Virus record (IMG/VR): IMGVR_UViG_2740892442_000004
DNA length: 64,000 nucleotides
Reading direction: 5' to 3' (one strand)
From: a virus
Lineage: Duplodnaviria > Heunggongvirae > Uroviricota > Caudoviricetes
Under the pieces are notes generated by a model that saw only the letters and a list, made by a program, of their open reading frames with translations, did not search any database and was not told the DNA's origin. Shown here in pieces: positions 1,705 to 63,802 of this stretch (the first letter of the stretch is position 1; each line of letters begins with the position of its first letter). The position numbers were made by a program, and so were the translations under genes.

Positions 1705-1718
1705 AAAACAATTTGTTT
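1705..1718 (+). promoter_or_regulatory. Palindromic AAAACAATTTGTTT element upstream of helicase gene
   Basis: One of seven near-identical palindromes about 20-45 nt upstream of start codons. Confidence 0.4.
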
Positions 1719-1737
1719 AAAAAACAAAGGAAAGCAC

Positions 1738-3078
1738 ATGACCGAACTTTGCCATACAGGACGCGGGCTGTCCGAAGAGTTTGATGAAGATTTCCAGAAC
1801 AGACTGACGGCATATTTTTGTCGTGATCACGAGTTTCTTACTCGTGCGGGAGATCTGGTTGTGCCTAGCCAATTTGCCAATGCGGCCAATGCCATATTGG
1901 TTAATATGGTTTCGGGCTATTACCGTATGTACAAGAGCGCGCCCTCTTCATCTGCAATTCTGGATATGCTTAAGCGTGCGAAACGCGATAAGACTATCCG
2001 TGAGGAACTATTCGCCGATGTTGTTGCTGCGTTTAAGCGCATCCTTGCAGAAAAATTGTCCGATACCTCGTACATGGTTGACCAGGTATCAACCTTCGCA
2101 AAAAGCGTAGCGTTTGATGATGCTCTGATTAAGGCTGCTGAACTGAAAGAGAAAGGCGACTTTCAGGGGGCGATGGCAATCATGGCCAAGGTTCAGCAGA
2201 TTGGATCGAACGAAGCGACCGGAATCTATGACTACTACACCTCCGCAAGTGAGCGATTGAAAGCGCGTGAATATGAGGCTTCAGAGGAGTATGTACCAAA
2301 CAGTATTACAACTGGACTCCCTCTTCTCGATAGGTTGCTGTACCAAAAAGGCTGGGCAAAGCGCGAAATGGTGCTCTTCATGGGGTTCGCTAAATCCGGT
2401 AAATCGACCGCAATGGGTGAGTTTTCCATAAACGCAACGCTTGCTGGCTACAATGTTCTGTATCTCTCGCTGGAGGTTCACACCACCATTTTATCCGACC
2501 GTTTTGATGCAAGATTGTCGGAGACGGAAATGTCCAAGCTGGTGGAACGGCGCGATGAGGTTCATCGTAAGTTGGCAGAGTTGGGAGCCACGAAGGGGAT
2601 TGGTAGTTTGTGGGTTGTCGAGCGTCCGTCAGGAAGTATGTCACCGGCAGACCTGGATCGTATGCTTAACAGCATGAAAGCCAATGGCATGGTGCCTGAC
2701 ATGGTTGTTGTCGACTACGCAGATTTGATGCGTGCCAGTTATGACCTTCGTGATGATCGCGCCAACATTCGTAGTATCTACACCGATTTACGTGCTCTTT
2801 ATGACAAGCATAACGTTGCTGGTATCACGGCGTCGCAAACAAACCGTGAAGGTGGCGCGTCAGAAGTTGCCACAATGATGCACGCTGCCGACAACATCGA
2901 AAAAGTACGTATTGCTGACCTGGTAATAACGATCAACAAAACCGAAGAAGAAGAAGCGAAAGGAGAGGCTCGTCTCTACTTTGCTGGTTCGCGTAACCAG
3001 CAGGGAGGGATCAGCATTCGCGTTAAACAAAACCTCGAACAAATGCGCTTCATTGAGCGAATCTTAGACGTTACCTAA
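1738..3078 (+). CDS. DnaB-like replicative DNA helicase
   Basis: Walker A GFAKSGKST, Walker B-like VVVDYADLM, RecA-fold C-terminal domain, 446 aa. Confidence 0.75.
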   Translation: MTELCHTGRGLSEEFDEDFQNRLTAYFCRDHEFLTRAGDLVVPSQFANAANAILVNMVSGYYRMYKSAPSSSAILDMLKRAKRDKTIREELFADVVAAFKRILAEKLSDTSYMVDQVSTFAKSVAFDDALIKAAELKEKGDFQGAMAIMAKVQQIGSNEATGIYDYYTSASERLKAREYEASEEYVPNSITTGLPLLDRLLYQKGWAKREMVLFMGFAKSGKSTAMGEFSINATLAGYNVLYLSLEVHTTILSDRFDARLSETEMSKLVERRDEVHRKLAELGATKGIGSLWVVERPSGSMSPADLDRMLNSMKANGMVPDMVVVDYADLMRASYDLRDDRANIRSIYTDLRALYDKHNVAGITASQTNREGGASEVATMMHAADNIEKVRIADLVITINKTEEEEAKGEARLYFAGSRNQQGGISIRVKQNLEQMRFIERILDVT

Positions 3079-3159
3079 AAAATAAGCGTGGAGAACACCT
3101 CCACGCTTGATTCATTGGTGAAACAACTTTTCTTTTGCCAAACCACAAAAGAAAAACAC

Positions 3160-4341
3160 ATGAGCCTTTATGTTATATCAACATTTAGGTTGGTCACAAT
3201 ATTGCCTGTTAAAAGTGGAATTATCGTGAGCGAGCTGAAAGAGCTAATTACCGAATTAGATTTTGAACAATGGTTGGATACTGAAGGTATCGTTTATCGA
3301 CGTGGAAGCGTGAGTGCTCGCGGTCGTGAAGTGAATATCAAGGAGTGTCCGGTATGCGGCAGCTCCAACTGGAAGGTATATTTCAATCTGACCAGCGGCG
3401 TAGGCAAATGCTTCGCTGGTGATCATCCCGAAGAGATTCAGTTCAATAAGCTGGTTTTCCTCAAGCACTACAGCGGCAAATCACGACGACAGTTCGAGGA
3501 ATATGTGCAGAACGCTCTTCTTTCGCAGGGGTGGGCACCAAAGAAAGAAGAAATAGTGCTTGCAAGCACAGTCGAGTTAGAGGGGCCACTTGCACTCCCT
3601 CGTCATTACGAACTTCCTATAGATGGCCGTCTTCCAGACTATCTGGTTGAACGAAACATATCGCCTGAAATGGCAAAGTATTTTGACCTACGATACTGCG
3701 TCGAAGGTAAGCACGCCTATGTAGATCCGTATACAGATCAGGTTAAAGGACAGATATTCGATATGCGAATACTGATACCGGTTTACGATCTGGATGGGGT
3801 AATGAAGACATTTCAGGGACGAGACATTACCGGTACAGCAGAACGCCGCTACCTCTTCCCTATGCAGCTGCCGGCGTCGGGTAAGTTTCTCTACAACGGC
3901 CACAACGCAGTCGGGAAACAAACAGTCGTTGTGTGTGAAGGGGCATTTGACGTAATGGGCGTGAAGCGAGCCATCTTCGACGAAAAGACGCTGAGGGATT
4001 ATGTAGAGCCAATTGGCACGTTCGGGATGCACTTGTCCGGAAATATGAATGAGGACGCTGAAGATCAGTTGGGCGCGTTCCTGACGCTCAAGGCGCGTGG
4101 ATTACGCAACGTCATCATGATGTGGGATAGCGAGAAGCAAGCGATCCGCAACACCATGTCGGCGGCCAAACGCCTCACCAGCATCGGACTAAATGTCAAA
4201 GTGGCCTGTCTGGGCGAAGAAGGTCTCGACCCCGGCGACGCGACGCCAGAGCAGATCCTCAAAGCCTATTATCGTGCCAAGCCTTACTCCAAACAGCTGG
4301 AGTTAAAATGCAAAGTGCTCGGTATCAAGTCACTCGTGTAG
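3160..4341 (+). CDS. DNA primase (zinc ribbon + TOPRIM)
   Basis: CPVCGSS...CFAGDH zinc-binding motif and VVVCEGAFDVMG TOPRIM-like motif; start set at ATG after conserved AAAGAAAAACACATG leader (ORF opens at 3088). Confidence 0.65.
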   Translation: MSLYVISTFRLVTILPVKSGIIVSELKELITELDFEQWLDTEGIVYRRGSVSARGREVNIKECPVCGSSNWKVYFNLTSGVGKCFAGDHPEEIQFNKLVFLKHYSGKSRRQFEEYVQNALLSQGWAPKKEEIVLASTVELEGPLALPRHYELPIDGRLPDYLVERNISPEMAKYFDLRYCVEGKHAYVDPYTDQVKGQIFDMRILIPVYDLDGVMKTFQGRDITGTAERRYLFPMQLPASGKFLYNGHNAVGKQTVVVCEGAFDVMGVKRAIFDEKTLRDYVEPIGTFGMHLSGNMNEDAEDQLGAFLTLKARGLRNVIMMWDSEKQAIRNTMSAAKRLTSIGLNVKVACLGEEGLDPGDATPEQILKAYYRAKPYSKQLELKCKVLGIKSLV

Positions 4342-4342: not shown

Positions 4343-5395
4343 TTAAGTTGTGGGAGACAGACGGTTCAGGACAAACGCTGCGATATTATTTAGTGCTATA
4401 TTTAGCAAACTTGCATCATATGTTTGGTCGTTATCCTTAGGTTTAAAATTGCTGATACTGACTGTCTCACTGTGCTCATTTTCATAGAAACGTTTACTGC
4501 TTGAATCTAGGCGTTTGAGGACGTAAATTTGCCCAAATTCAATCCACTCACCTTCACCATTGAGTCCGCTCCCTGTTTTGACTGAGATGAAGTACTTTGC
4601 CAGCTTGGTTGTAATGCAGTCTTCATTTTTTTCTATGCAAACCTTAATGCCGGCGGCTTTCAAACTACGATAAATGCTGTTTGGATATGCCCCACTATAG
4701 ATTTCGCTGCTTTCAATGATAATGACGTCGTATTCTTCCTTTGGCTCAATAGATAAAGCTTCAGGCTCCAAATCATCCTTGTGAAAAATAAATCCTAAAA
4801 GACGCTCAAGTTCATCTGTTAATTTGAACATGGGGTTCGCTTGGATCTCGCCAGCCCTGTCTTCGTAGACGAGACCCGAGGTTATGAGCTTATTTAGCGA
4901 TCTCAGAGCCATTCCACTTTTTTGTGATGTGAGGCTAACTTGGGCTAATACAGTTGATTTATAGCCTTTTATTGGCGAGCTTGTTGTGATGTAAAGTTTG
5001 CGCGCATATTCAATATCAAAGCAGGTTAACCCACTCAGTATGTGGATAAAAAATAGTTTTTCATCGTCGTTAAGGCTGCTGCGGGCTAGGCTTACCGTCA
5101 AGCGAATGTAGTATTCTGTTTTCTTGTCTTCATCATCAAGCACGAGCTTTTTGACTAACGCCGAAAAGTGTTCTCTTGAGATATCGACCTCATCGTCGCA
5201 AATTTCACCAATGCCCATAATGTAACGGTTGAATCGATCACGACAAGTCGTCGCATTTATCTCTGAGAACAACGTGAACATTTTTTCCGCTGCCTCAATA
5301 TGAGGTCCAACAAGCGGTATAGATTTGGCAAACGCCAAACCAGTTTCTTTCAATACCTTCCTGTGTTGCATCACGTTTTTGGACAACGTTGTCAT
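4343..5395 (-). CDS. hypothetical protein, AT-rich, opposite strand; possible PD-(D/E)xK-like C-terminal region
   Basis: 350 aa ORF convergent with primase; lower GC than flanks; YDVIIIE...VCIEKNED weakly nuclease-like. Confidence 0.45.
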   Translation of the reverse strand: MTTLSKNVMQHRKVLKETGLAFAKSIPLVGPHIEAAEKMFTLFSEINATTCRDRFNRYIMGIGEICDDEVDISREHFSALVKKLVLDDEDKKTEYYIRLTVSLARSSLNDDEKLFFIHILSGLTCFDIEYARKLYITTSSPIKGYKSTVLAQVSLTSQKSGMALRSLNKLITSGLVYEDRAGEIQANPMFKLTDELERLLGFIFHKDDLEPEALSIEPKEEYDVIIIESSEIYSGAYPNSIYRSLKAAGIKVCIEKNEDCITTKLAKYFISVKTGSGLNGEGEWIEFGQIYVLKRLDSSSKRFYENEHSETVSISNFKPKDNDQTYDASLLNIALNNIAAFVLNRLSPTT

Positions 5396-6454: not shown

Positions 6455-6919
6455 ATGTCCACAAAAACAGATTTGTCGAAAATCCCGTCTATCTCCGGAA
6501 ACAACGGTTATTCGCTGCGCTGTCAGGAAGTGAAGATCAACGGCCATGAGGCCCATTGCAGCTATACAGTCTGCCAGCACACCATCCTCGCCTACAAAGA
6601 GAAGCGTCTCCCAGCGACATCGTTCCAGTCCTGCGCTGCGGCCATTGCTGCTGGAAAATGCCAGGCGCTGAAGATGATGGTCGAAGAGATCCGCAAAGGC
6701 GAACAGCTCTACTTCATCGATATGGCTGCGCTTATCAAAGAAGTGGAAGAGCAAAACGACCACGCCAGAACGCTTACCCGGAAGCGCAACACCATGACGA
6801 TTCAACGCACGAAGAAAACAGAACCAGCCAAACCCGAAACCACGTCCACCGATTCACTGGCGCCTGTCACTGACGTGTACGCGGCACTCATTGAAGAAGC
6901 AACCAAAGAAAACACATGA
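6455..6919 (+). CDS. hypothetical Cys-rich protein
   Basis: ORF opens at 6377; start placed at ATG 6455 downstream of the intergenic palindromic motif. Confidence 0.4.
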   Translation: MSTKTDLSKIPSISGNNGYSLRCQEVKINGHEAHCSYTVCQHTILAYKEKRLPATSFQSCAAAIAAGKCQALKMMVEEIRKGEQLYFIDMAALIKEVEEQNDHARTLTRKRNTMTIQRTKKTEPAKPETTSTDSLAPVTDVYAALIEEATKENT

Positions 6920-6953
6920 AAACTCCCGAGCGACCGATGGAAGTTAAACACTA

Positions 6954-8276
6954 ATGGAAAAACTGATCGCCCTAAAGCACAAGCTGGATGCCATAAAAAC
7001 GATGGGAACCAACGCCAAAAAAGAGGCGCTGGCCAACCTTGATGAATTTGAGCAGAGCATGGTCTCGCTAATGCTCAACCCATTCATTCGATTCGGTGTG
7101 AAGAAGTACAAAGTGGTCGAGCCACTCGATACTTCCGTACCCATCGACCAGAAGGTAGTCGAGCTGCTGGAGAAGCTGGCGGCGCGCGAACTGACCGGGA
7201 ACGCGGCCATTACTGCTGTTGAGTCTATCGTGGCGTCAATGTGCGCCGATGGGCAGGACGTGTTCCGTCGTTTCCTCTTAAAAGACCCGAAAGCGGGTGT
7301 TGGGATTAGCCTATGCAACAAGGTTTTTGAAAATCCCATTCCGAAATTCGAGGTGCAGCTGGCGTCACCGTATAAAGAAAAAGGCGACAAATACCCCTTC
7401 AAGCCAAACCCTAAAGCAAAATGGCCTATGATTGGCAGCCTTAAGCTCGATGGTTTGCGAGTAATTTGCGAGGTTATTGTTGACGAAGAAGAGGTTAACT
7501 TCCTTTCTCGTACTGGTAATCCAATCACGTCTCTCGATCACCTAAAGCCAGCCATGCTCGAATTAGGCAAACTTTCAGGCCACAAACACATCTTCTTCGA
7601 TGGTGAAGGAACTGCCGGTTCATTTAACCAGTCCGTATCTGCATTGCGCAAAAAGAACGTGCAGGCAATTGGCGCTATTTATCATGTTTTCGACTTCTTC
7701 CTACCGGAATGGCGGGCACAGGCTAAATCCAAAGAGTATGCAAAGACAGGTATGAAGCTGAAAGAGCGCCTGGCTATTCTCGTGGCGTTGTTCAAAAACG
7801 ATCGCAGTGAAGGCTACACACAAGACATTCACCTGCATCCGTTCTATATCATCCATAGCCACGAAGACTTCATCGAACGCTTCATGAAACGCCTGGACGA
7901 TAACGAAGAAGGGGAGATGGGCAAAGATCCGAACTCTGTTTACGAGTTTAAACGTACCCGCAGCTGGTGGAAGTTAAAAGACGAAGATTCAGAAGATGGT
8001 GAAATTATCGACTTTGAGCCGGGCGACCCGGACTCTGGTTTTGCCAACACGCTTGGAAAAATTGTTATTCGCCTTGAAAACGGTGTGATTGTTCGTGCGA
8101 GCGGCATTAAGCATAAATATCTGGACGAGATCTGGAACAACAAAGAGAAGTACCGTGGTCGTATTGTCGAGGTTCATTGTCACGAGAAAACGCCGGATGG
8201 CAGCTTACGCCACCCACGACTGAAATGGCCTCGTTGCTTACGCGATACCGAAGATCGAATCGGAGATAAAGAATGA
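6954..8276 (+). CDS. ATP-dependent DNA ligase
   Basis: Nucleotidyltransferase motif I SLKLDGLR, motif III FFDGE, motif V WWKLK, LRHPR motif VI-like. Confidence 0.7.
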   Translation: MEKLIALKHKLDAIKTMGTNAKKEALANLDEFEQSMVSLMLNPFIRFGVKKYKVVEPLDTSVPIDQKVVELLEKLAARELTGNAAITAVESIVASMCADGQDVFRRFLLKDPKAGVGISLCNKVFENPIPKFEVQLASPYKEKGDKYPFKPNPKAKWPMIGSLKLDGLRVICEVIVDEEEVNFLSRTGNPITSLDHLKPAMLELGKLSGHKHIFFDGEGTAGSFNQSVSALRKKNVQAIGAIYHVFDFFLPEWRAQAKSKEYAKTGMKLKERLAILVALFKNDRSEGYTQDIHLHPFYIIHSHEDFIERFMKRLDDNEEGEMGKDPNSVYEFKRTRSWWKLKDEDSEDGEIIDFEPGDPDSGFANTLGKIVIRLENGVIVRASGIKHKYLDEIWNNKEKYRGRIVEVHCHEKTPDGSLRHPRLKWPRCLRDTEDRIGDKE

Positions 8277-8488
8277 TCGTATTAAGTAAACGGGAGAAGG
8301 AAACGCTTCATGAAATCAGTAAGTGGCCGGAGTTCCCTGAGTACTGGAAGCCTAAAACGCGAGCTAAGTTAGAGCGTTTAGGGTTGGTTGCAAACGTTTC
8401 TGAAACGTGGTGTTCGGCCAACTACCAGTTAACTGATAAAGGGAAAGTATTGCTACAGCAATTAGTAGAATCAGGAGCGTTAAAATGA
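8273..8488 (+). CDS. hypothetical small protein
   Basis: 71 aa ORF with ATGA overlap to ligase stop. Confidence 0.4.
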   Translation: MIVLSKREKETLHEISKWPEFPEYWKPKTRAKLERLGLVANVSETWCSANYQLTDKGKVLLQQLVESGALK

Positions 8489-9949: not shown

Positions 9950-10269
9950 ACACAACAGGTAAGAGCATTGGGCGAATCGGCGATACTGACCCACAAGGCC
10001 GTAAATCGATAGAGTCAGACCAGTGCTCTTACCGTTGTGAGGAAGTGCAGCTCTTTGAAGCAACCAGAAGATAAGCATCTGGCTTCACAACACAACGATA
10101 ATATCATTACGGTTAATCGTCGTTCATGTGCACAATGACTGGTCGAAAGGTAGTGATCTTACCGTTGTGATGAATGCACAGGCTGATGTGCCGCAACTAC
10201 AGTAGTGCGCGCTTTGCGGGGCTTGCTACAACCCTGTGTCGGAGTTCAGCACCGACCATCACAATAGCT

Positions 10270-10356
10270 GGAGAGTAGGGAGCATGGTGCTCAAGCGGTC
10301 TTGAAAACCGTCCCATTGTGCAAACGATGATGGTTCGATTCCATTACTCTCCGCCA
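10270..10356 (+). tRNA. tRNA-Ser (anticodon TGA), long variable arm
   Basis: Acceptor ggagagt/actctcc, anticodon stem-loop gcggtCTTGAAAaccgt as in enterobacterial tRNA-Ser(UGA), T-loop ggttcgattcc, CCA end. Confidence 0.7.
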
Positions 10357-10514
10357 GACACAGCGTTGAGCGGTTTGGCCTTTTAATCAACTCGATTAAG
10401 ACTCCGCTAACATAAACCAGACCGCTCAACGCTGTGATAGATAATTACGGCAGACGTTCTTAACCATAGCTTGCTAACATCCTAGCAACACTTTTTTTCA
10501 GCGCAAAATTCAAA

Positions 10515-10534
10515 GGGGCTTCGGCCCCTTTTTT
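10515..10534. terminator. Rho-independent terminator between convergent transcripts
   Basis: ggggcttcggcccc followed by tttttt. Confidence 0.65.
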
Positions 10535-10549
10535 GTTGAACAGTGCAAT

Positions 10550-11812: not shown

Positions 11813-11986
11813 GTATGTATTTCACTCTACTAACTATAAAATATTAGGGTAATGTTAACCAAACAATGCCTTAATTAATAGATTGATCGAGGCTTTAATA
11901 GCTTTATAATGCAGACTGCAAAGATAAGTATGGACATACCTATCTTCTTTGTGAGTAAAGTTGCATATCAATTCTATGAGGTAACA

Positions 11987-14390: not shown

Positions 14391-14488
14391 CCCCTCTTCT
14401 CCCTGCGCGAATGGCTTAGTTCCCTGTTCGCGCAGTGCTACATTAAACACACTAGTAAATAATTTGTTTTCATAACAAAGGATTAGCC

Positions 14489-51561: not shown

Positions 51562-51616
51562 TCTGATATGGCCGCATGATCGGCCATATTGTGTTGATAA
51601 AAAACAAGGATGAAAA

Positions 51617-51898: not shown

Positions 51899-51900
51899 TT

Positions 51901-52515: not shown

Positions 52516-52618
52516 CCAATGCCTTTATTTGAAGGATTGCCTGTTTATTTCTATTTAGTACCTTTTCATTTTTGAAATAATTGCACCATTAAACAAATCA
52601 CTTCTTAATGGTGCAATT

Positions 52619-54304: not shown

Positions 54305-54365
54305 TAGGTAAATGCTTACTTAATTTGTGTAAGAATGTAATAACTAAACGATAAGAGAAAAACAC

Positions 54366-55070
54366 ATGAACAACCTCCAGTTAGAGCATTTTAACGTCAC
54401 AGGCCATTCTGATTTTCCTTTCAAGTTTACATTGAAAGGTTATGCAGAGGATGCGGTAGGCCAGATCATTATTGATAAAGGCATCGTTAAGTTTGAGGGG
54501 GATTTTGATGAATCCGCGAAAACATTCATAGACTTCGTTGCCAAACGTTGGAGCGAGCAATGGAAAGACCTGGAAAAGCGCGCTAGTGAGTTTGATCGGT
54601 TCATGGATGCAATGGATACAGCAAAAGAGGCTCTTGCTGCCGGGACTCCGTTAGATCTGGAGTCACTTTTCAACGGCGAAGTGGCCTCTGCGATGTTCGC
54701 CACCATGTTCGCGGGTGAGTTCGTCCGCAGCGGTGCCAAAAACTACCTTGAGCTGGATTACAACGTCCCTGCAATTGGCGATTTCGTCGTTACCATCCAA
54801 CGCAAAGAAGGTAAGACGCCAGGTGAACGCGTCGCAGAACTTGAGGCTGTTGTGGATCAGCGTAACGGAGAGTGTGACCGTTTGATCAACGAGCTTCATG
54901 CACTTCGGGAAGAAAGAATATGCGAGGGTAGTAATACACGTAATGCAGCGGATATCTACTTCCAGTTAGTTGAGGAATGCCAGATTCCACCAGGTGGCTC
55001 TCTTGTCGATTACGTCGGACATTTAATGGCGGAAGTTAACTCCAGCCATAAAGATGGTGAGGTGCGCTGA
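54366..55070 (+). CDS. hypothetical protein
   Basis: 234 aa ORF after AGAGAAAAACACATG leader. Confidence 0.45.
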   Translation: MNNLQLEHFNVTGHSDFPFKFTLKGYAEDAVGQIIIDKGIVKFEGDFDESAKTFIDFVAKRWSEQWKDLEKRASEFDRFMDAMDTAKEALAAGTPLDLESLFNGEVASAMFATMFAGEFVRSGAKNYLELDYNVPAIGDFVVTIQRKEGKTPGERVAELEAVVDQRNGECDRLINELHALREERICEGSNTRNAADIYFQLVEECQIPPGGSLVDYVGHLMAEVNSSHKDGEVR

Positions 55071-55450
55071 TGTTTGGCATTGACGCACAGCGTATAGCCG
55101 CTTTTGCAAAAAGCCCTCTTGATAATCCCTTGTCTCGTAGTGAGCAAATGGAGCTGGCAAGGCTTTTTCTTCACATTCAAAAACAGGCAGACATTTTCAA
55201 TAACATGCCTAATCAACCTATTCTGGATGGCCACATCCAGATGGTCATTAACAGTCATGAGAAAGGCTGGGCTGCAATCGTCCCCTGCACAATTACATAC
55301 AAGTTGGCGAAAGAGGTTCAAGAGTTTCGAAAAGCCAGTGTCGAATCGGAGTCTACCAAAGCCGCAATAAACACTCTTATTCGCATGGGGTTCACATGGA
55401 CCGGTGGAGCCTACTGGCAAGCACCTCACCCCATTTTATCCGGCAATTAG
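55070..55450 (+). CDS. hypothetical protein
   Basis: 126 aa ORF. Confidence 0.4.
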   Translation: MFGIDAQRIAAFAKSPLDNPLSRSEQMELARLFLHIQKQADIFNNMPNQPILDGHIQMVINSHEKGWAAIVPCTITYKLAKEVQEFRKASVESESTKAAINTLIRMGFTWTGGAYWQAPHPILSGN

Positions 55451-55587
55451 ACGCTACAAATCCTTCGGCATGAATAAATAAAGGCCATAAGTTGTGGCCC
55501 TAAATAAATTGTTTTCTACCTTTTCTTATTTGTGAAAATAACCAGCACTTGGTAGTGCTTATGTAACAGCAAAGAAGAGAAAAACAC

Positions 55588-56139
55588 ATGAGTAACAAAA
55601 TCGAAAATCCCGTAGTTCTCATTCACAAGCGCGAGAACCACGACTCCTATGCGGTGGCGATCACCAATGGGAGTCACGATTTTTACGATGGCCTGCTAAT
55701 GGCCTCAGTGTCGCCTGATGAGGCAGACAACTCTTTTGCCGTCTTCGCTATGGTTGGTTACTACATGGCTGCCGAAATTGAGAAGTTGCGGGCGCAGAGA
55801 GACGCATTAGCGGCGGAGAATGTGGCATTGCGATCTAAGGCTGCGGAACTGGCACATGAAGCGTCAAAAATTTACTCGGCATATAACGCCACTATCACAG
55901 AGCCTGACGGGGATTTTATGGACATGCAGACATTGCATGAAATGCAGTGCATAGAAACTCCAGCCACCGATGCTTTTCTGGCTGAAGTACGTGCGCAGGG
56001 CGTGGATATGGCTCGTAACGCGATGATTGATTTTGTTGATGGTGAAGTTGGGCCAAACAAGAACGTTCCGGGGCTGATTAGAGGCGCAGAGATATGCGTA
56101 AGTATTGCTGAACTGCTTCGTAAAGGAGTCATCCAGTGA
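55588..56139 (+). CDS. hypothetical protein
   Basis: 183 aa ORF after AGAGAAAAACACATG leader. Confidence 0.45.
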   Translation: MSNKIENPVVLIHKRENHDSYAVAITNGSHDFYDGLLMASVSPDEADNSFAVFAMVGYYMAAEIEKLRAQRDALAAENVALRSKAAELAHEASKIYSAYNATITEPDGDFMDMQTLHEMQCIETPATDAFLAEVRAQGVDMARNAMIDFVDGEVGPNKNVPGLIRGAEICVSIAELLRKGVIQ

Positions 56140-56780
56140 GCAAGATTGACTATCAGGCACTGCGTGAGATAGCAGAGAAAGCAACGTGTGGTGTGTGGTC
56201 GCTCGAATATGGAGAGGGCCGATTTGATGGTGATGATGCACTAATTCATCGCGAGGCTGCTGGATATATTCCCATTTGCAGAATTGAAGGAGCGCATCCT
56301 GAAAGCGGTTTCGATGAAGATTTCCAAATGGAACAGCAGGCCAATGCTGAATTCATCGCCGCAGCCAGTCCGGCTACTGTGCTGACGCTGCTGGATGAAC
56401 GGGAAAGAAACCAGCAATACATCAAAAGCCGTGACCAGGAGAACGAGGAAATTGCGCTAACGGTAGGGAAGCTGCGTGTTGAGCTGGAAGCCGCAGAGAA
56501 GCGCATAGCAGAACTGGAGGCACGGGAAATAAAACCAGCCAAAGGCGAAGTTCTTGTCGTTGTATCTGGTTTTACTGGTTGCGGAAAAAGCGCCATTGCC
56601 GGGGAAATAGAAATCGCGATGAAGGCTATTGGTGTACCGGTTCAGTGGACTAATGGCGATGCGGAAAAGCGCATGACAGGAGCTGACTGGCTGACAGCGA
56701 TTGAGATGTACAAACCAACAGTGCGCATCGTGGAAGTTAATGTGCCACGCGCCCCTGGCATTCGCATCAAAGGAGAGTGA
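56136..56780 (+). CDS. hypothetical protein (possibly Ead/Ea22-like)
   Basis: 214 aa; N-terminal [14 protein letters not shown] segment; weak. Confidence 0.35.
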
Positions 56781-56781
56781 G

Positions 56782-57108
56782 ATGGCCACATCGCATTATG
56801 CAATCACCCAGGAAAAAGTATTTCGCTTGCTCGAACGTCTGGAGGCGCTCGCCACGGAGGAGGATATATCCCCGGAGATGCTGGTTGAGTGCAGCCGTGT
56901 GATATTGCGTCGCAAGAACGACATCGCGCGGTTGACATCTGGCGCACCATCCGTATCAGCCAGTCCAACGCTTTATTGCAGCTTCTGCAACAAATCCCAG
57001 CACGCCGTCAAAAAGTTAATTGCTGGGGACGCCGTTTTTATCTGCGACGAGTGCGTGGATGTGTGCAACAGAATTATCCGGGGAGAGAAAGAGGGATCAG
57101 CACGATGA
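56782..57108 (+). CDS. Small protein with ClpX-type zinc-binding motif
   Basis: C-terminal [37 protein letters not shown] closely parallels the ClpX N-terminal ZBD; four Cys conserved; AGGAG Shine-Dalgarno. Confidence 0.55.
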
Positions 57109-57290
57109 GAAAACTAGAGGTTCGCGCTGAAGACGTAATCCCTGGTGATGTGCTCATAACATCTAAAGGTCAACAATGTGCGGTTAAATCTTTCTGGATG
57201 GACGGTGACAAAGTGACTCTGTTCGGTACGGATGGTTCCGAAACTGATTATGACTACGACGAATTGCTTGTTGTTGAGAGAGCTGCCTAA
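57105..57290 (+). CDS. hypothetical small protein
   Basis: ATGA overlap with upstream stop; 61 aa. Confidence 0.35.
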
Positions 57291-57916
57291 TGACCACGGT
57301 TAACAATAAGAAATGCTACCCAAGCGAGAAATATCTTAATGAGCTGATCACCAACATAGAGTTTGCGGCAAGGGCACCAGTTGAAGTCGTGAGAGCAATG
57401 GCAGCAGAGCTACAGAAGCGGCGCGAAGCTGATAGTGCCGAACCTGCAAGTAATCATGAAGAGTTGCCGCTTGATTATCTCCAAGGTCAAAAAGATGGTC
57501 TTGAATGGGCTGCGCAGCTTGCAGAAGCAAATCACCCACAAACTGGCGACTGGCTTTACGATGACCCGCTGGAGCTGGCTAAAGCTATCAGAAAAGGTCC
57601 TGACATGCCCGAATTCGATGGGCCAACTCCGGTAACTCCGGATGGTTGGATAAGCTGTAGTGAGCAGATGCCTGTAATCGGCGAGCTAAATTGGAGAACT
57701 GGTTTTCCTTTGCTGATTACGTGTGAGATCGGCGTTATACCAGCTTATTACGGCTTTGTGAGCGTTAATGGGGATAAGCATTATGGTTTTATGGAAAGTT
57801 TTAAATACGGAGACGATCGCGGCGGCCATCCTAAAACTAATGAATATGGTCTGATTAGCAATGTCACACACTGGATGCCGCTACCAGAACCTCCGCAGGA
57901 GTCGAAGAGTGAATAA
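57290..57916 (+). CDS. hypothetical protein
   Basis: 208 aa ORF. Confidence 0.45.
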   Translation: MTTVNNKKCYPSEKYLNELITNIEFAARAPVEVVRAMAAELQKRREADSAEPASNHEELPLDYLQGQKDGLEWAAQLAEANHPQTGDWLYDDPLELAKAIRKGPDMPEFDGPTPVTPDGWISCSEQMPVIGELNWRTGFPLLITCEIGVIPAYYGFVSVNGDKHYGFMESFKYGDDRGGHPKTNEYGLISNVTHWMPLPEPPQESKSE

Positions 57917-58130
57917 AGCAGAGTTATTTCAGAAAATATCGGCTCTCGCGACTGAATGCCACGCTATAGCATCTGAGCTTGATGTTGGCGATGAACGAAC
58001 CGAGATGTTCGAAATATACAGTGTGCTGCGCAATCTCTGTCGGCGTGGCTACGCCACTCAAGTAGGGCGAATGACTAACCCACTACTCTCATCCTGTGAT
58101 GAGGATGACTCGGATGAGGATGACGAATGA
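57909..58130 (+). CDS. hypothetical small acidic protein
   Basis: GTG start with AGGAG 6 nt upstream; ORF opens at 57861. Confidence 0.35.
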   Translation: MNKAELFQKISALATECHAIASELDVGDERTEMFEIYSVLRNLCRRGYATQVGRMTNPLLSSCDEDDSDEDDE

Positions 58131-58510
58131 TGCATAAATCAGTAGCCGGTGAGTTTCAGAAGGAAGTCGATAATACCACTGATCTATTGGACGATATTTT
58201 AAGCATTCTCGCGCTGCTTGAGGCTGGCGATTGGTCAGAACATTGCACTAAAACAGAGCTAGGCGGTCGGCTTGAAAGAGAGATTACACGACTGATTAGC
58301 GATGCCCAAAATGATTTGTCACCTGAGCATCTCCCCTGCGATGTAGTTCTTGTGCCAGGGATGAGGATACACGAAGGCGTCAGAACGAAAACATTATTAA
58401 CCGCATTACAGAGAAGAGCCGAACTAAGCTCGCGGATAAAGTTGATGCCATCCAAAATATTTGATGTCGTCAAATTTATGCCATCGCAACATACTGAGAG
58501 AGATAAATGA
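58127..58510 (+). CDS. hypothetical protein
   Basis: 127 aa ORF, ATGA overlap. Confidence 0.4.
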   Translation: MMHKSVAGEFQKEVDNTTDLLDDILSILALLEAGDWSEHCTKTELGGRLEREITRLISDAQNDLSPEHLPCDVVLVPGMRIHEGVRTKTLLTALQRRAELSSRIKLMPSKIFDVVKFMPSQHTERDK

Positions 58511-59133
58511 GCACGGTAGCGAAAGATCTCACAGAAGATATTCTCAATGAAATTATTGCTGGTGCAAATACCTCGCTTGAGCAACTTCTTGCGTTAGCAC
58601 TGAGAGCCGAACGTCGAGACAGAAATCGTTTTTATGAGCGATTACCAGGGAAGCGACCAGATAGATCGGATGAAGAAGGTTGCGATATAGACTACATGGA
58701 GCCTTCAGAGATTTATCAACTTGGTAAAGATGACGGCTGGAACGCTTATCACGATGCTGTGATGAAGTTGGATGAAAAAGTTAAACCTCTTTCTCGACCG
58801 GTAGATCACGGTTTCCGCGATAACTGCGAATGCTCTAGTTGCCAGACCACGGCCCGTATTTGTTCCGAATTGACAGATAAGTCCAGCCTAATCTACGAAG
58901 TTAATGTAGGCGGTAATACATGGGTCGAATGCACAAGAGCTGCATACGTAAGAGCAAAAGACAAGGGTGAATTAACCAGAGTTGTTACCAATCACCCAAA
59001 TAATGAGCTTAAAGATCACCAGATTCGAGAACTGGTGAACGAGTTGAGAGATATTGCGGTTCAGTACCACGGAACGCAGCAATTGCGGGAGAAGATTGCC
59101 AGAGCAGTGAACAACTCAGTCCGTAAAAAATAA
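58507..59133 (+). CDS. hypothetical protein
   Basis: 208 aa ORF. Confidence 0.45.
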   Translation: MSTVAKDLTEDILNEIIAGANTSLEQLLALALRAERRDRNRFYERLPGKRPDRSDEEGCDIDYMEPSEIYQLGKDDGWNAYHDAVMKLDEKVKPLSRPVDHGFRDNCECSSCQTTARICSELTDKSSLIYEVNVGGNTWVECTRAAYVRAKDKGELTRVVTNHPNNELKDHQIRELVNELRDIAVQYHGTQQLREKIARAVNNSVRKK

Positions 59134-59188
59134 GCAATAGTACGATAAAGAGGCCCCATGCTCTTGATGGGGCCTGTAGCAACTAGCG

Positions 59189-59272
59189 TTATGGACGCTG
59201 GTTTACGTACTCAATGATCGCTTTGATAATCGCGAACATCGGCGGCACGATTTTGAACAGTAAGTTAACCAT
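59189..59272 (-). CDS. candidate small hydrophobic peptide (27 aa)
   Basis: MVNLLFKIVPPMFAIIKAIIEYVNQRP with GAGG Shine-Dalgarno about 8 nt upstream; below the ORF-track size cut-off. Confidence 0.25.
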   Translation of the reverse strand: MVNLLFKIVPPMFAIIKAIIEYVNQRP

Positions 59273-59572
59273 AACAGGCCTCACTTAGTTTTATCGCGCC
59301 TAGCTGCAAATACCTTTGGGCTTGCCTTTGCAGTTGCAATATCTGTAGTCGCCAGATACTTACGGCACGATTTCGAGTTAAGGTAAGGTTTTAGAGTCAC
59401 CAAAAACCTGGACTTAAATCTTCTTTGAGAACAACGATGTTTAGTAAATGGTCATTATTACCTGGTATGACCACTCAACGTTTCTTGATGAATCCAGTAC
59501 ATTCGGTTAATCTTAATTCAGTCGCCAGATACTTATGGCTCAGGAACAGAGCCGCAAACTCTGTTTCCTTTT

Positions 59573-59604
59573 AAAAAGCCCAGCCTAGTCAACTGGGCTT
59601 TTTA
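59573..59604. terminator. Bidirectional rho-independent terminator
   Basis: agcccagcctagtcaactgggct flanked by A-run and T-run. Confidence 0.55.
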
Positions 59605-59701
59605 ATGTCTATTTTTAACCCAATGAACCTTCAATACCGCAACATCAGTGTCTTGCGAATTAAGATAGTGTGTATAGGTTATGCATGCAAGTGCATAACT
59701 C

Positions 59702-59710
59702 TGTGGATAA
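59702..59710 (-). promoter_or_regulatory. Perfect DnaA-box sequence
   Basis: tgtggataa is the exact reverse complement of TTATCCACA. Confidence 0.35.
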
Positions 59711-59898
59711 CTCAGGAAGGAAAAAGTAGCTTCCGCGCAATTTAGGCCAGACAAGGCTTTCGCAAAAGTCAACAGAGAGAAAAAATTTGTTAAAAATAAC
59801 GTTTGTTGGAATTATATATATTTATGCCTTTCAATAGTTAGCATCTTATTAACATCTTTTTTAAGAGATAGAGTTCAAAAATATATAGCTTCAACATA

Positions 59899-59918
59899 TA
59901 CTGTATGTATATACAGTA
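59899..59918 (+). promoter_or_regulatory. LexA (SOS) box upstream of UmuD'-like gene
   Basis: TACTGTATGTATATACAGTA matches CTGT-N8-ACAG perfectly; 17 nt upstream of ATG 59935. Confidence 0.75.
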
Positions 59919-59934
59919 TTAAGAGGCGAGTATT

Positions 59935-60324
59935 ATGGGCTTCCCTTCTCCTGCGGCGGATTATGCTGAGAGCCGTATTTCTCTTGATCAGCAGATAATT
60001 AGACATCCTTCAGCGACCTACTTCATGAGGGCAGCTGATAGTCATCATCGTGAGGGAATATTACAGGGTGCATTGCTGGTGGTCGATTCCTCACTTACCC
60101 CGGTTGATGGTTCTCTGCTTGTATGCGCTCTGGATGGGGAATATCGCGTAAAAAGATACCGGAAGTATCCACGTCAGCATCTGGAGGATTTAAGAACCGG
60201 TAAGAAGGAAGCATTGCCAAAGGATGACGATGGATGCACGGGCAGCAATGCCGTGTTTGGTGTGATCACTCACATTATCAACGACGCAAGAAGTGGCGAG
60301 TTTGATGATTGTCCCGTGATGTAG
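59935..60324 (+). CDS. UmuD'-like S24 peptidase-fold protein (resembles phage P1 HumD-type UmuD' analogue)
   Basis: Begins MGFPSPAADY, i.e. at the position of the UmuD Cys24-Gly25 cleavage site; Ser (ADSHH) and Lys (RVKRY) dyad positions retained; no umuC-like gene follows. Confidence 0.65.
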   Translation: MGFPSPAADYAESRISLDQQIIRHPSATYFMRAADSHHREGILQGALLVVDSSLTPVDGSLLVCALDGEYRVKRYRKYPRQHLEDLRTGKKEALPKDDDGCTGSNAVFGVITHIINDARSGEFDDCPVM

Positions 60325-60336
60325 GAGAACTGATTA

Positions 60337-60360
60337 GGCGGTGCAATGCACCGCCTTTTT
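60337..60360 (+). terminator. Rho-independent terminator
   Basis: ggcggtgcaatgcaccgcc followed by ttttt; ends 2 nt before apbC stop codon. Confidence 0.65.
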
Positions 60361-60361
60361 A

Positions 60362-61462
60362 TCACACTGCGCGGAATGCGATTTCGCCAGGTATTACTTC
60401 ACCTTGCCAATACATTTGGGCAGCAACGCGATCTGCGAGGTCACGATAAATAGCCGTAAATTCGCTATCTGGACGACTAATAACGGTTGGTGTTCCGTTA
60501 TCCAGATCTTCACGAAGAGAGATATGAAGTGGCATTTGGCCTAACAACTGCGTGTTGTATTTCTCGGCCAGTTTCTGTGCGCCACCGGTGCCAAAAATTG
60601 GCTCGTGATGACCGCAGTTACTGCAAATATGCACACTCATGTTTTCGACGATACCCAGTACCGGCACTTCGACTTTTTCGAACATCACAATGCCTTTCTT
60701 CGCATCGATCAGCGCGATGTCTTGCGGCGTAGTTACCACAACCGCACCAGTTACAGGAATGTTCTGCGCCAGCGTCAACTGAATATCACCAGTGCCCGGC
60801 GGCATATCGAGAACGAGATAGTCCAGATCAGGCCATAGAGTTTCCTGCAACATCTGCATCAGCGCCTTGCTGGCCATCGGTCCACGCCACACCATTGCAT
60901 TGTCGTCGGTGACCAGATAACCAATAGAGTTGGTTGCCAGGCCATGAGACATGATAGGTGCCATGTGAGTACCGTCAGGTGAGGTTGGACGTTGGTTTTC
61001 CGCGCCCAGCATGGTTGGAATTGATGGACCATAGATATCGGCATCCAAAATACCAACTTTCGCACCTTCAGCAGCCAACGCCAGTGCCAGGTTTACCGCC
61101 GTGGAGGATTTACCCACGCCGCCCTTGCCTGAGCTGACGGCGATAATGTTCTTAACGCCATTAATGCCTGGTTGGTTTTTGACGCGCTTAAGCGTGGCAA
61201 TGTTGTACGACAGCTTCCAGTCAATAGCCTTTGCGCCAGTGATACGGAGCAGATCACCACTACATTGCTCTTTCAGGTCTTCAAAAGGCTTATTCCACAC
61301 GAAAGGCATGATTAGTTCGACATGCAGTGTGTCATCCATCAACGCAACATGGTGTAACGCTTTAAGCGTAGTCAGGTTGTGTTTCAGGGTTGGGTGCTGA
61401 AAATTAGCCAGCGTACCGGCTACCATTGCTCTCAGGGCATCCGGCGATTTGGACTCGCTCAT
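60362..61462 (-). CDS. apbC: Fe-S cluster carrier ATPase ApbC/Mrp
   Basis: 366 aa; essentially collinear with E. coli Mrp as recalled; P-loop SSGKGGVGKSS; CxxC-containing ICSNCGHHEP. Confidence 0.9.
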   Translation of the reverse strand: MSESKSPDALRAMVAGTLANFQHPTLKHNLTTLKALHHVALMDDTLHVELIMPFVWNKPFEDLKEQCSGDLLRITGAKAIDWKLSYNIATLKRVKNQPGINGVKNIIAVSSGKGGVGKSSTAVNLALALAAEGAKVGILDADIYGPSIPTMLGAENQRPTSPDGTHMAPIMSHGLATNSIGYLVTDDNAMVWRGPMASKALMQMLQETLWPDLDYLVLDMPPGTGDIQLTLAQNIPVTGAVVVTTPQDIALIDAKKGIVMFEKVEVPVLGIVENMSVHICSNCGHHEPIFGTGGAQKLAEKYNTQLLGQMPLHISLREDLDNGTPTVISRPDSEFTAIYRDLADRVAAQMYWQGEVIPGEIAFRAV

Positions 61463-61619
61463 CCCGTCTCCTTTATTTTAATTTGCGCAATTGTCGCCTT
61501 GTAGTGTACTCCAGCTACGACATTTAATCATTTATGAGAAATGCTGTTATCACATGGCAGACATAAGGCCATTTTGTTACTATCAAGCCCCTTTTCACTA
61601 CAAAGAAGTAATGCCTACT

Positions 61620-63653
61620 ATGACCCAAGTCGCGAAGAAAATTCTGGTGACGTGCGCGCTGCCGTACGCTAACGGCTCAATCCACCTCGGCCATATGCTG
61701 GAGCACATCCAGGCTGATGTCTGGGTTCGTTACCAGCGAATGCGCGGCCACGAGGTTAATTTCATCTGTGCCGACGATGCCCACGGTACGCCGATCATGC
61801 TGAAAGCACAGCAGCTTGGTATCACACCGGAGCAGATGATTGGCGAAATGAGTCAGGAACACCAGACTGATTTCGCAGGCTTTAACATCAGCTATGACAA
61901 CTATCACTCGACGCACAGCGAAGAGAACCGTCAGTTGTCTGAGCTTATCTATACTCGCCTGAAAGAGAACGGTTTTATTAAAAACCGCACTATCTCTCAG
62001 TTGTACGACCCGGAAAAAGGCATGTTCCTGCCGGATCGTTTTGTAAAAGGCACCTGCCCGAAATGTAAAGCGCCAGATCAATACGGCGATAACTGTGAAG
62101 TCTGCGGCGCAACATATAGCCCGACTGAATTGATCGAGCCGAAATCGGTGGTTTCTGGCGCTACCCCGGTAATGCGTGATTCCGAACACTTCTTCTTTGA
62201 TCTGCCTTCTTTCAGCGAAATGTTGCAGGCATGGACCCGCAGCGGCGCGTTGCAGGAGCAGGTGGCGAACAAAATGCAGGAATGGTTTGAATCCGGCCTG
62301 CAACAGTGGGATATCTCCCGAGATGCGCCTTACTTCGGTTTTGAAATTCCGAACGCGCCGGGCAAATATTTCTACGTCTGGCTGGACGCGCCGATTGGCT
62401 ACATGGGTTCCTTCAAGAATCTGTGCGACAAGCGCGGCGATACCACCAGCTTCGATGAATACTGGAAGAAAGACTCCACCGCCGAGCTGTACCACTTCAT
62501 CGGTAAAGATATTGTTTACTTCCACAGCCTGTTCTGGCCTGCCATGCTGGAAGGCAGCAACTTCCGCAAGCCGACCAACCTGTTTGTTCACGGCTATGTG
62601 ACGGTGAACGGCGCGAAGATGTCCAAGTCTCGCGGCACCTTTATTAAAGCCAGCACCTGGCTGAATCATTTTGACGCCGACAGCCTGCGTTACTACTACA
62701 CTGCGAAACTCTCTTCGCGCATTGATGATATCGATCTCAACCTGGAGAATTTCGTTCAGCGCGTGAATGCCGATATCGTGAACAAAGTGGTTAACCTGGC
62801 CTCCCGTAATGCAGGCTTTATCAACAAGCGTTTTGACGGCGTGCTGGCAAGCGAACTGGCTGACCCGCAACTGTACAAAACCTTTACTGATGCCGCTGAA
62901 GTGATTGGCGAAGCATGGGAAAGCCGCGAATTTGGTAAAGCTATCCGTGAAATCATGGCATTGGCTGACCTGGCTAACCGCTATGTCGATGAACAGGCTC
63001 CGTGGGTGGTGGCGAAGCAGGAAGGACGCGATGCCGATCTGCAGGCGATTTGCTCTATGGGCATTAACCTGTTCCGCGTGCTGATGACGTACCTGAAGCC
63101 GGTACTGCCGAAACTGACTGAACGTGCAGAAGCATTCCTGAATACAGAACTGACCTGGGATGGTATCCAGCAACCGCTGCTGGGCCATAAAGTGAATCCG
63201 TTCAAGGCACTGTATAACCGCATCGATATGAAGCAGGTTGAAGCACTGGTGGAAGCATCCAAAGAAGAAGTGAAAGCCACAGCCGCACCGGTAACTGGCC
63301 CACTGGCTGACGACCCGATTCAGGAAACTATCACCTTTGACGACTTCGCCAAAGTTGACCTGCGCGTGGCGCTGATTGAAAACGCAGAGTTTGTAGAAGG
63401 TTCTGACAAACTGCTTCGCCTGACGCTGGATCTCGGTGGTGAAAAGCGTAATGTCTTCTCAGGCATCCGTTCCGCTTATCCAGATCCACAGGCACTGATT
63501 GGTCGTCACACCATTATGGTGGCTAACCTGGCACCACGTAAAATGCGCTTCGGTATCTCTGAAGGCATGGTGATGGCTGCTGGCCCCGGCGGGAAAGATA
63601 TCTTCCTGTTAAGCCCGGATGCTGGTGCTAAACCTGGCCACCAGGTTAAGTAA
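61620..63653 (+). CDS. metG: Methionyl-tRNA synthetase
   Basis: 677 aa from [26 protein letters not shown] (HIGH) with KMSKS; near-identical to E. coli MetG as recalled; track ORF opens upstream at 61491 with non-native extension. Confidence 0.92.
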
Positions 63654-63673
63654 TTAAACAACCTCTCTTCGCA

Positions 63674-63699
63674 ATGCCCGGCAACACGCCGGGCATTTT
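63674..63699 (+). terminator. Rho-independent terminator after metG
   Basis: atgcccggcaacacgccgggcat followed by ttt. Confidence 0.65.
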
Positions 63700-63736
63700 C
63701 ATATAGACACAATCCCTTCTGATTTACACAGTACCT

Positions 63737-63802
63737 AAAACAATTTGTTTTCTGCCTTTTGTTGATGGAGATAATAAACCACATAAGAAAACAACTTGTT
63801 TT
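63737..63802 (+). promoter_or_regulatory. Two tandem phage-type palindromes (AAAACAATTTGTTTT, AAAACAACTTGTTTT) plus ACCACATAAGAAAAC leader
   Basis: Same elements as upstream of genes in the phage-like region; located downstream of metG. Confidence 0.45.

Follow-up and report, generated by a model that had tools for sequence, protein, structure and literature searches.

A dispersed palindrome and a standardised translation-initiation leader at gene starts of SSU5/pHCM2-type phage-plasmids

Results

The window and its palindrome

The window analysed here, a stretch of 64,000 nucleotides of the viral record IMGVR_UViG_2740892442_000004, is, on sequence comparison, part of a phage-plasmid of Escherichia coli of the SSU5/pHCM2 type. 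A 24-kb stretch is 98% identical to Escherichia phage Cyrano (OV696614), which is the plasmid pLF82 found in E. coli LF82; to the same stretch, SSU5 of Salmonella and phage-plasmids of Klebsiella are ~76% identical. Mapping of all 123 Cyrano proteins on the window yields a collinear series without breaks, from CYRAN_31 to CYRAN_101. All of the window maps to Cyrano, and the whole window is therefore one phage-plasmid, with no host/element boundary inside it. It carries genes of replication (helicase, primase, ligase, DNA polymerase III (PolIII) alpha, RepA), recombination (gp32-, UvsY- and RecA-like proteins, SbcCD) and nucleotide metabolism (NrdAB, ThyX, DHFR), together with four tRNAs, an integrase with an XRE regulator, cobT/S and numerous small genes. 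Two short sequences recur at the starts of these genes: a leader that directly precedes start codons, and a palindrome that is most likely the binding site of an element regulator, on about twenty promoters.

The initial annotation of the window had listed seven palindrome sites. Six are exact matches to the 14-mer AAAACAAYTTGTTT (positions 1705, 28690, 50231, 50960, 63737 and 63788), against an expectation of 0.02, and none of 100 shuffles of the window reaches six; the seventh is real but carries one mismatch (ATAACAACTTGTTT) and lies at 40001, not at 40003. The actual unit is a 13-bp core, AAACAAnTTGTTT, with the dyad AAACAA-n-TTGTTT (6+1+6, central base free), a symmetry that suits a dimeric DNA-binding protein. 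The core is extended to 8-9 bp on one side, the dyad often being lengthened there to AGAAAACAAnTTGTTTTCT, and the 19-mer form of the site is AGAAAACAAGTTGTTTTCT. With up to one mismatch to the core, the window holds nine copies, all intergenic, plus a degenerate copy at 3121; three sites are additional to the earlier list, namely 14456 (TAAATAATTTGTTT, before a cobT-like gene), 55502 (inverted) and the degenerate 3121. The palindromes had been placed 17-45 nt upstream of a start codon, and this holds for six of the seven (13-31 nt from core to ATG), but not for the site at 63737, which lies 64 nt from the ATG at 63815 and is paired with the site at 63788.

Position of the palindrome relative to predicted promoters

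The sites lie in or beside sequences that resemble promoters. Before the DnaB-like helicase gene (ATG 1738), the palindrome AAACAATTTGTTT (1706-1718, plus strand) covers the predicted start site of a promoter with a −35 element TTGATC (1675-1680) and a −10 element AATACT (1697-1702) that ends 3 nt before the core. Before nrdB (ATG 40046), TAACAACTTGTTT (40002-40014, plus strand) is abutted by a −10 element TAAGAT (39997-40002), with a −35 element TTGTAA at 39975-39980. The palindrome AAATAATTTGTTT (14457-14469, plus strand) of the cobT-like gene (ATG 14489) follows an extended −10 element, TGCTACATT, at 14436-14444, and that of the DUF7238 gene (28691-28703, plus strand; ATG 28720) follows an intrinsic terminator and a −10-like AATTAT (28675-28680), the orthologous sites of SSU5, Klebsiella and Cronobacter having TATTAT or CATTAT 11 nt upstream of the dyad. 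Palindromes at 50232-50244 and 50961-50973 (both plus strand) precede the TciA-like gene (ATG 50269) and the gene at 50992, the latter palindrome with a −10-like CACAAT (50942-50947) 13 nt upstream. The degenerate copy AAACAACTTTTCT (3121-3133, plus strand; two mismatches) lies upstream of the primase gene and is followed by AACCACAAAAGAAAAACAC-ATG, whose ATG at 3160 is the likely true start. The inverted-sense copy (AAATAAATTGTTT then TCT; 55502-55514, minus strand) overlaps the place of the −35 element in the predicted promoter for the gene at 55588, with a −10-like GAAAAT (55534-55539) 19 nt downstream. After metG, a putative dual-site promoter (63738-63801, plus strand) has a distal palindrome at 63738-63750 (centre ~−38) and a proximal one at 63789-63801 (centre ~+14), with a −10 element GATAAT (63770-63775) between both sites and the start of a DUF5983 gene at 63815. 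A TTG-initiated mini open reading frame (ORF) inside the dyad was considered as a general feature and rejected, being confined, by eye, to one paralogous subgroup.

We compared 75 dyad sites from six genomes and defined a −10-like hexamer as one with A at position 2, T at position 6 and at least four of six matches. For sites in gene sense, the end of such a hexamer is exactly 13 nt ahead of the dyad in 18/47 and 10-14 nt ahead in 30/47; for sites in inverted sense, it begins exactly 19 nt after the dyad in 13/27. Assuming the usual 7-nt spacing from −10 element to start site, the dyads would be centred near +14 and −38, and the predicted placements are ~−38 (the −35 region), over the start site (~+1 to +5), or +12 to +14. 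Dyad pairs 51 bp apart are present in the window (63744 and 63795), Cyrano, SSU5, Klebsiella phi12.3 and Klebsiella STEFF14, and at several promoters the paired −38 and +14 sites flank the −10 element. We infer that the hexamers are promoter elements; at every placement a protein bound to the dyad would be expected to exclude or trap RNA polymerase.

The same geometry bears on whether the dyad could be a positive promoter element, used by an element-encoded activator or sigma-appropriating factor to switch on early and middle transcription, much as Lpa serves the late promoters of P1 and MotA boxes serve T4. Many −35 hexamers are poor and a generic scan finds no strong promoter, as is typical of activator-dependent promoters; inverted sites centre at ~−38, near the class II activator position; and the whole ~60-bp promoter is kept as a cassette. 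However, the distance between −10 element and dyad varies (dyad 0, 3-5 or 10-14 nt downstream, or 19 nt upstream), whereas activators need fixed phasing, and most dyads lie downstream of the −10 element, where activators do not act. In addition, the annotations of Cyrano and SSU5 include no RNA polymerase, no sigma factor and no homologue of Lpa or MotA. We consider a positive element quite unlikely. Since these annotations list no phage-type RNA polymerase, a promoter for such an enzyme was rejected too.

Distribution and conservation of the palindrome

In a blind search for inverted repeats the dyad ranks first in the window, Cyrano, SSU5, a Cronobacter plasmid and the divergent Klebsiella STEFF14. 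With up to one mismatch, the nine copies of the window compare with 18 in Cyrano, 20 in SSU5, 13 in Klebsiella phi12.3, 4 in the Cronobacter plasmid (40 kb) and 15 in Klebsiella STEFF14 (82 kb), corresponding to 10-19 per 100 kb in the phage-plasmids vs. 0 in 100 kb of E. coli K-12 MG1655. In Cyrano, 15 of the 18 dyads lie within the 13% of the genome that is annotated as intergenic; of the three others, two lie in gene starts annotated too far upstream, as judged by PHROG coverage, and one lies in a dubious ORF with a TTG start. A Providencia plasmid is syntenic, with proteins 40-60% identical, yet has no dyad above chance (four copies, none exact, which is the chance level).

The Providencia element helps to weigh a further possibility, that the dyad is a partition or global plasmid-control site of KorB/ParB type, bound by the ParB-like CYRAN_119/120 or by CYRAN_29, the small partner of ParA. 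The dyad is an odd palindrome of 13 bp repeated 15-20 times over the plasmid, like the OB sites of RK2; one dyad stands in the parA promoter of Cyrano, SSU5 and Cronobacter; and two proteins with a ParB_N domain are conserved in the family. Against this, both ParB-like proteins (47% and 69% identity) and the partner of ParA (33%) are kept in the dyad-less Providencia element, the dyads form no centromere-like cluster, and KorB OB sequences are not enriched in the window (TTTAGCSGCTAAA, up to two mismatches: 1 match vs. 1.4 expected). A partition or KorB-like role is very improbable.

Alignments of individual upstream regions show which parts of them are kept. For the cobT-like gene, aligned in six elements (the window, SSU5, an S. 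Typhi pHCM2-like plasmid, Y. pestis pMT, a Klebsiella plasmid and the Cronobacter plasmid), the order is terminator (with compensatory stem substitutions), extended −10 element TGnTAnATT, 12 nt, dyad, Shine-Dalgarno sequence (SD); the remainder drifts, and the dyad is nearly invariant, the window having AAATAA for AAACAA. For the helicase gene, in four divergent elements, the −35 sequence TTGA and the palindrome are invariant, with a −10-like hexamer 16-17 nt on and the dyad 3-5 nt later. For nrdB, TTG-N19-TAAGAT and the palindrome are kept in the window, SSU5 and Klebsiella phi12.3, the −10 element abutting the dyad. The conserved −35 and −10 elements of the helicase and nrdB promoters thus put the predicted start inside the dyad, so that the RNA would carry just half of it.

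Conserved dyads also occur in other settings. At Cyrano 57-100 (outside the window) and SSU5 62-100, two dyads 25 bp apart are followed by a GC-rich hairpin with a T-run, just upstream of terS, a promoter-operator-terminator layout which suggests that the late operon also needs antitermination. At Cyrano 94611, SSU5 90746 and Klebsiella phi12.3 44660 (reverse complement), a conserved dyad has neither SD nor start codon after it; it lies within a CA-rich conserved stretch, overlapping the dubious TTG-start ORF CYRAN_103, and might be the promoter of a non-coding RNA or an origin-related site.

Recognition as DNA or as RNA

As RNA, the dyad could form at most a 5-bp, A-U-rich stem, in a hairpin of no more than −2.3 kcal/mol in magnitude. 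The variant sites (TTATTT, TTGGTT, ATGTTT) break pairing with no compensation, 11 predicted 5' untranslated regions (UTRs) fold no better than shuffles (z-scores −0.9 to +1.3), and an Rfam scan of the window gives no match at the dyads, its only matches being the tRNAs and a cspA thermoregulator elsewhere. The lack of RNA structure, together with the half-transcribed dyad predicted for helicase and nrdB, favours recognition as double-stranded DNA.

These observations have to be set against a specific RNA-level alternative. Salmonella FljA binds the fliC 5' UTR and represses post-transcriptionally. In the alternative, the dyad is an RNA operator in the 5' UTR, before the SD, and the FljA-family protein CYRAN_114 (Cyrano 100780-101301, outside the window) acts as a global translational repressor of early genes. 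The protein is a core gene product of the element family (Pfam Flag1_repress, 1e-80), with homologues in SSU5 and both Klebsiella elements and in 831 PLSDB plasmids, including 341 of Klebsiella and 62 of Y. pestis. Klebsiella and Y. pestis are non-flagellate, so that the target of an FljA-like protein in these hosts probably lies inside the element. The Providencia relative has neither the protein nor the dyad, and has the leader just once; chromosomal FljA is ~40% identical, so that the 36% identity of the Klebsiella STEFF14 homologue need not alter specificity; and the SD begins 1-3 nt after the dyad in several genes, with a flanking AGA that is strand-specific. When the Salmonella fliC 5' UTR, reconstructed from primers in PMC3410353 and PMC5056187, is aligned with dyad-bearing upstream regions, the maximum score is 18 vs. 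12.0 +/- 1.6 in shuffles (P = 0.003), and it aligns better with dyad regions than with other Cyrano upstream regions (P = 3e-5, the sites being non-independent).

However, the shared SD region accounts for some of the fliC similarity, and for the E. coli K-12 fliC 5' UTR the similarity is not significant (P = 0.06). An RNA operator would also have neither a stable hairpin nor compensatory changes, and it has no need of a strict 6+6 dyad, which dimers that bind double-stranded DNA require and Sm proteins do not. Gene-sense dyads fall in a 5' UTR next to the SD only if the upstream −10 elements are promoters, and other sites do not fall there at all: about one-quarter of sites are inverted, at a fixed 19 nt upstream of the −10 element and thus outside the regulated transcript, and the helicase and nrdB promoters predict a half-transcribed motif. 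These arguments from geometry rank the RNA operator second to a DNA operator, and we regard it as unlikely. The same holds for its fuller form, an improbable scheme in which the dyad and the GGAAAACAC-AUG leader together would be the RNA operator of the FljA-family repressor (two tandem Sm/Hfq-like domains), with the FljA-fliC phase-variation switch of Salmonella a domesticated offshoot of the mobile-element circuit, whose fliC 5' UTR would mimic element leaders.

A standardised leader at first cistrons

The second recurrent sequence, the leader AAAGGAAAAACAC, has five sites in the window with up to one mismatch, vs. 0.12 expected; the shorter RAAARCACATG has 11, all on the plus strand and none in reverse, vs. 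0.27 expected, and each ends in a start codon. Enrichment of both motifs had been proposed as a check, and palindrome and leader are indeed far above chance and strand-specific. The leader had been described as almost invariant at 12 starts, of which ten match RAAARCACATG exactly and two (16693 and 33009) are one base off. It stands as AAAGGAAAGCAC at 1725-1737 (plus strand), immediately before the helicase ATG at 1738, and in similar form directly before the ATGs at 3160, 6916, 16693, 18109, 24128, 27595, 29201, 33009, 40046, 50269, 50992, 54366 and 55588, two of which (24128, of a gp32-like single-stranded DNA-binding protein gene, and 6916, of a 12-codon upstream ORF (uORF)) are new to the list.

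An intergenic gap of at least 44 nt lies upstream of each leader gene with one exception, the uORF at 6916, as this overlaps the last part of the ORF before it. Leader genes are therefore first cistrons, unable to rely on translational coupling. The genes at 27595 and 33009 have sigma-70-like promoters (TTGAAA-17-TATTAT and TTGTTT-16-TAGAAT) with a predicted start ~25 nt before the ATG, so placed that the conserved ATAACCACAAAGGAAAAACAC is nearly the entire predicted 5' UTR, with GGA 7-8 nt from the ATG. These sequence features bear out the proposal of the initial annotation that the AAAGGAAAAACAC-ATG leader serves as a standardised region of translation initiation: a short, A/C-rich, predicted unstructured 5' UTR with an SD. 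Cistrons that open a transcription unit would use it since they must recruit ribosomes unaided.

Palindrome and leader had been presented as one gene-start module, but the two are independent, both being present at just four of the ~14 leader genes in the window. The sequence AACCACAWARG has five copies vs. 0.16 expected, four in leaders and one inside a dyad module, which indicates that leaders and dyad modules share ancestry or constraints. Leader copies number 6-11 per enterobacterial relative, one in the Providencia element and none in 100 kb of MG1655. We conclude, on their distribution among the sequences compared, that palindrome and leader belong to the element family and not to the host; a generic host promoter element, the case named in advance as fatal to the proposal, does not apply, with both motifs at zero in 100 kb of E. 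coli K-12.

The uORF at 6916-6954 has 12 codons (MKTPERPMEVKH) and a canonical GAAAACAC-ATG leader, and its stop codon overlaps the ligase start (TAATG). The arrangement is also present in SSU5, and the uORF may serve translational coupling or be a leader peptide. Motif position and PHROG coverage indicate that starts are misannotated in the public Cyrano record (window 3160; Cyrano 95826, 97262 and 97972). The corrected starts of CYRAN_105 and 110 lie downstream of a dyad, that of CYRAN_108 is 12 codons further on, and the probable start of primase is 22 codons before the annotated one, at a canonical leader. The leader is a compact, portable initiation region that aids the correction of gene starts (primase, CYRAN_105, 108 and 110).

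Candidate regulators

The leading, if tentative, candidate for the protein that binds the dyad is the XRE-type helix-turn-helix regulator at 13543-13926 (minus strand), the homologue of CYRAN_45. Its homologues lie beside an integrase in 865 PLSDB plasmids and are present in all temperate relatives, and CYRAN_45 is expressed above background in the LF82 lysogen (PMC9928086). SSU5, which is called virulent in a genome announcement, is without the integrase/XRE module and has kept its 20 dyads. The ParB-like proteins and CYRAN_123, also weighed as candidates, persist at 47-69% identity in the Providencia element, where the dyad is missing.

None of the small genes behind dyads supplies an autoregulated Cro-like candidate, all belonging to families of unknown function. 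Pfam, PHROGs and NCBIfam give no function for a 71-aa 'putative regulator' (8273-8485), CYRAN_123 or CYRAN_29, and a single-sequence structure model of the 71-aa protein is unusable (pLDDT, the predicted local distance difference test score, 58). No replacement dyad or repeated 11-mer was found in the Providencia relative, and consequently no swap of operator and regulator could be read off.

The family has a second dyad, ATA-GGTAAGT-N2-4-ACTTACC-TAT, often after a three-frame stop run (TAAgTAAgTAA), which takes second place in the blind search of Cyrano, SSU5, Cronobacter and Klebsiella STEFF14. Its copies are at 13958-13971, 49324-49341 and 54307-54320 of the window and at 9021, 15532, 22451, 72602 and 77439 of Cyrano; the dyad stands 32 nt upstream of the XRE gene and also precedes genes for a tail protein (CYRAN_12), tail L, tail fibre, ThyX and Dam, and looser copies are found ahead of the genes for portal, major capsid and ParB. 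This second dyad may be an operator for the XRE protein itself, or a hairpin in RNA within operons.

Other genes in the window

The block of apbC (mrp) and metG (60362-63653), divergent and arranged as on the chromosome, is ~90% identical to the chromosomal locus in all 5,426 complete E. coli genomes; at ≥95% identity it is present in ~216 plasmid records from complete E. coli genomes, and it is absent from SSU5 and the Klebsiella relative. We conclude from these comparisons that apbC-metG is host-derived housekeeping cargo within the element, in one branch of these phage-plasmids, and not host flank. The reappearance of the palindrome after metG had been taken to mark the downstream DNA as element-derived; the block is indeed chromosome-like, but what follows is a return to the backbone past the cargo, not an element edge.

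The Rep3-type RepA (30694-31908, minus strand) is just 52% identical to Cyrano RepA and is flanked by genes 98-100% identical, which looks like a replicon (incompatibility) swap between otherwise near-identical elements. Between PolIII alpha and hicAB lies a cold-shock protein gene (21906-22324, minus strand; CSD domain, 4e-33) that is without annotation in the Cyrano record and has a full-length match to the Rfam cspA thermoregulator (186 bits). Beside the tRNA cluster, 10001-12000 is low in GC (36%) and has a 420-aa ORF (10550-11812, minus strand) with no Pfam match, at the position of CYRAN_41 and 43 in Cyrano; a 350-aa ORF (4343-5395, minus strand), also with no Pfam match, follows the primase gene in the place of SSU5_041. 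Both resemble insertions of the accessory or defence type. A canonical LexA box, TACTGTATGTATATACAGTA (59899-59918), stands directly 5' of the SD of a gene for a 129-aa UmuD-like S24 peptidase (59935-60321). Cyrano is inducible by ciprofloxacin (PMC9928086), and the LexA box fits this induction.

Discussion

The results indicate that the palindrome and leader of SSU5/pHCM2-type phage-plasmids form a cis-regulatory system that is real, conserved and apparently undescribed, and of an ordinary kind: a probable dispersed operator and a consensus initiation region. No paper with the motif came up in a full-text search that used the four variants of the 13-mer as well as shorter cores, and no study of regulation or plasmid/lytic switching was found in the literature on SSU5, pHCM2 and phage-plasmid repressors.

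We favour, with a probability of roughly 0.55, the reading that the dyad is a dispersed DNA operator for an element-encoded repressor, acting at sigma-70-type promoters of these phage-plasmids. A co-regulated gene class with a common operator had been proposed in the initial annotation; the promoter-proximal sites fit this, and the operator role is what we infer from their placement. According to this hypothesis a dimeric repressor would bind the dyad and sterically block RNA polymerase, from sites over the −35 region, over the start site or, in the manner of lacO1, at +12 to +14. The regulon would comprise helicase-primase, cobT/S-PolIII alpha, nrdB, tciA, a run of small early genes, parA and the terS late operon; that is, lytic and replicative functions to be held low during plasmid life. 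In the transcriptome of the LF82 lysogen, the first cistrons behind dyads (helicase, cobT, nrdB, tciA, parA and terS, and likewise CYRAN_87, 101, 105, 106, 110 and 111) are not among the genes above background (PMC9928086).

Several points weigh against a repressor-operator system of this form. A strict scan for the sigma-70 consensus (9/12 matches) over 49000-64000 finds no promoter at the window's sites, so that promoter assignments rest on weaker but conserved hexamers. In 59/75 sites the triplet AGA adjoins the core on just one side, and this side always faces the −10 element, an asymmetry not predicted by a symmetric dimer. Sites are related by paralogy and orthology, so that counts overstate independent events. 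The par operon genes CYRAN_29 and 30, behind a dyad, are expressed in the LF82 lysogen (PMC9928086). For the XRE candidate, the putative recognition helix varies (KNANNLSLIKSGK, KNPNILSLIKKGR, ENANNLSNIKTGR, ENANNISLIKSGR) across 80 IMG/VR loci that all keep the same dyad, which is uninformative or mildly negative for its candidacy, and the upstream region of its gene carries a different dyad, GGTAAGTGCTTACC, in place of the operator palindrome.

Phage-plasmids of the SSU5/pHCM2/pMT1 type are common in clinical Enterobacteriaceae, and homologues of the XRE-type and FljA-like core genes are carried on >800 PLSDB plasmids, including those of the S. Typhi pHCM2-like and Y. pestis pMT type. The dyad provides a map of the regulon that probably decides between plasmid life and lytic growth (replication, nucleotide supply, early, partition and late functions), and it narrows the search to a short list of candidate regulators.

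The host factors LexA, Fur, IHF, DnaA box, KdgR and parS were considered and rejected, none fitting the half-site spacing; the only LexA box in the window is that before the umuD-like gene. The KdgR box (consensus AAATGAAACAnTGTTTCATTT) has a similar half-site, GAAACA/TGTTTC, but a spacing that differs by 2 bp, and the KdgR-like GAAACANTGTTTC is not enriched in the window (5 matches vs. 3.9 expected).

Among repressor systems, the placement of the dyads recalls lac O1 and lambdoid operators, which are dyads centred at ~+11 or overlapping the −35 or −10 element and act by steric hindrance; same-face pairs would permit cooperative binding. The 434 operator (ACAA-N6-TTGT) shares the half-site letters ACAA/TTGT, but the spacing here is N1 (or AAACA-N3-TGTTT), not N6, and the sites are genome-wide, not confined to one immunity region as in lambdoid phages. 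The FljA-fliC system of Salmonella resembles the present one in the family's core FljA homologue, in a motif and leader just before the SD, like the FljA target, and in a modest, significant similarity of the fliC UTR; it differs in that the homologue is only ~40% identical to chromosomal FljA and that site geometry here points to DNA recognition.

Phage P1 has one C1 immunity repressor and many scattered operators at lytic and replication promoters. The likeness is that of many operators for one repressor over a phage that lives as a plasmid; P1 operators are, however, asymmetric 17-mers (ATTGCTCTAATAAATTT), with no match in the window at up to three mismatches, whereas the site here is a dyad of 13-19 bp, and no C1 homologue is annotated. 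RK2 carries 12 OB sites. Its KorB OB and KorA OA sites are likewise odd palindromes of 13 bp at promoters, in ~12 repeats that make one global regulon, but their sequence is different (TTTAGCSGCTAAA for KorB) and KorB is of the ParB family, while the ParB-like proteins of the element persist in a dyad-less relative. By this analogy of arrangement, the closest functional analogues of the dyad would be the C1 operators of P1 and the KorB/KorA sites of RK2.

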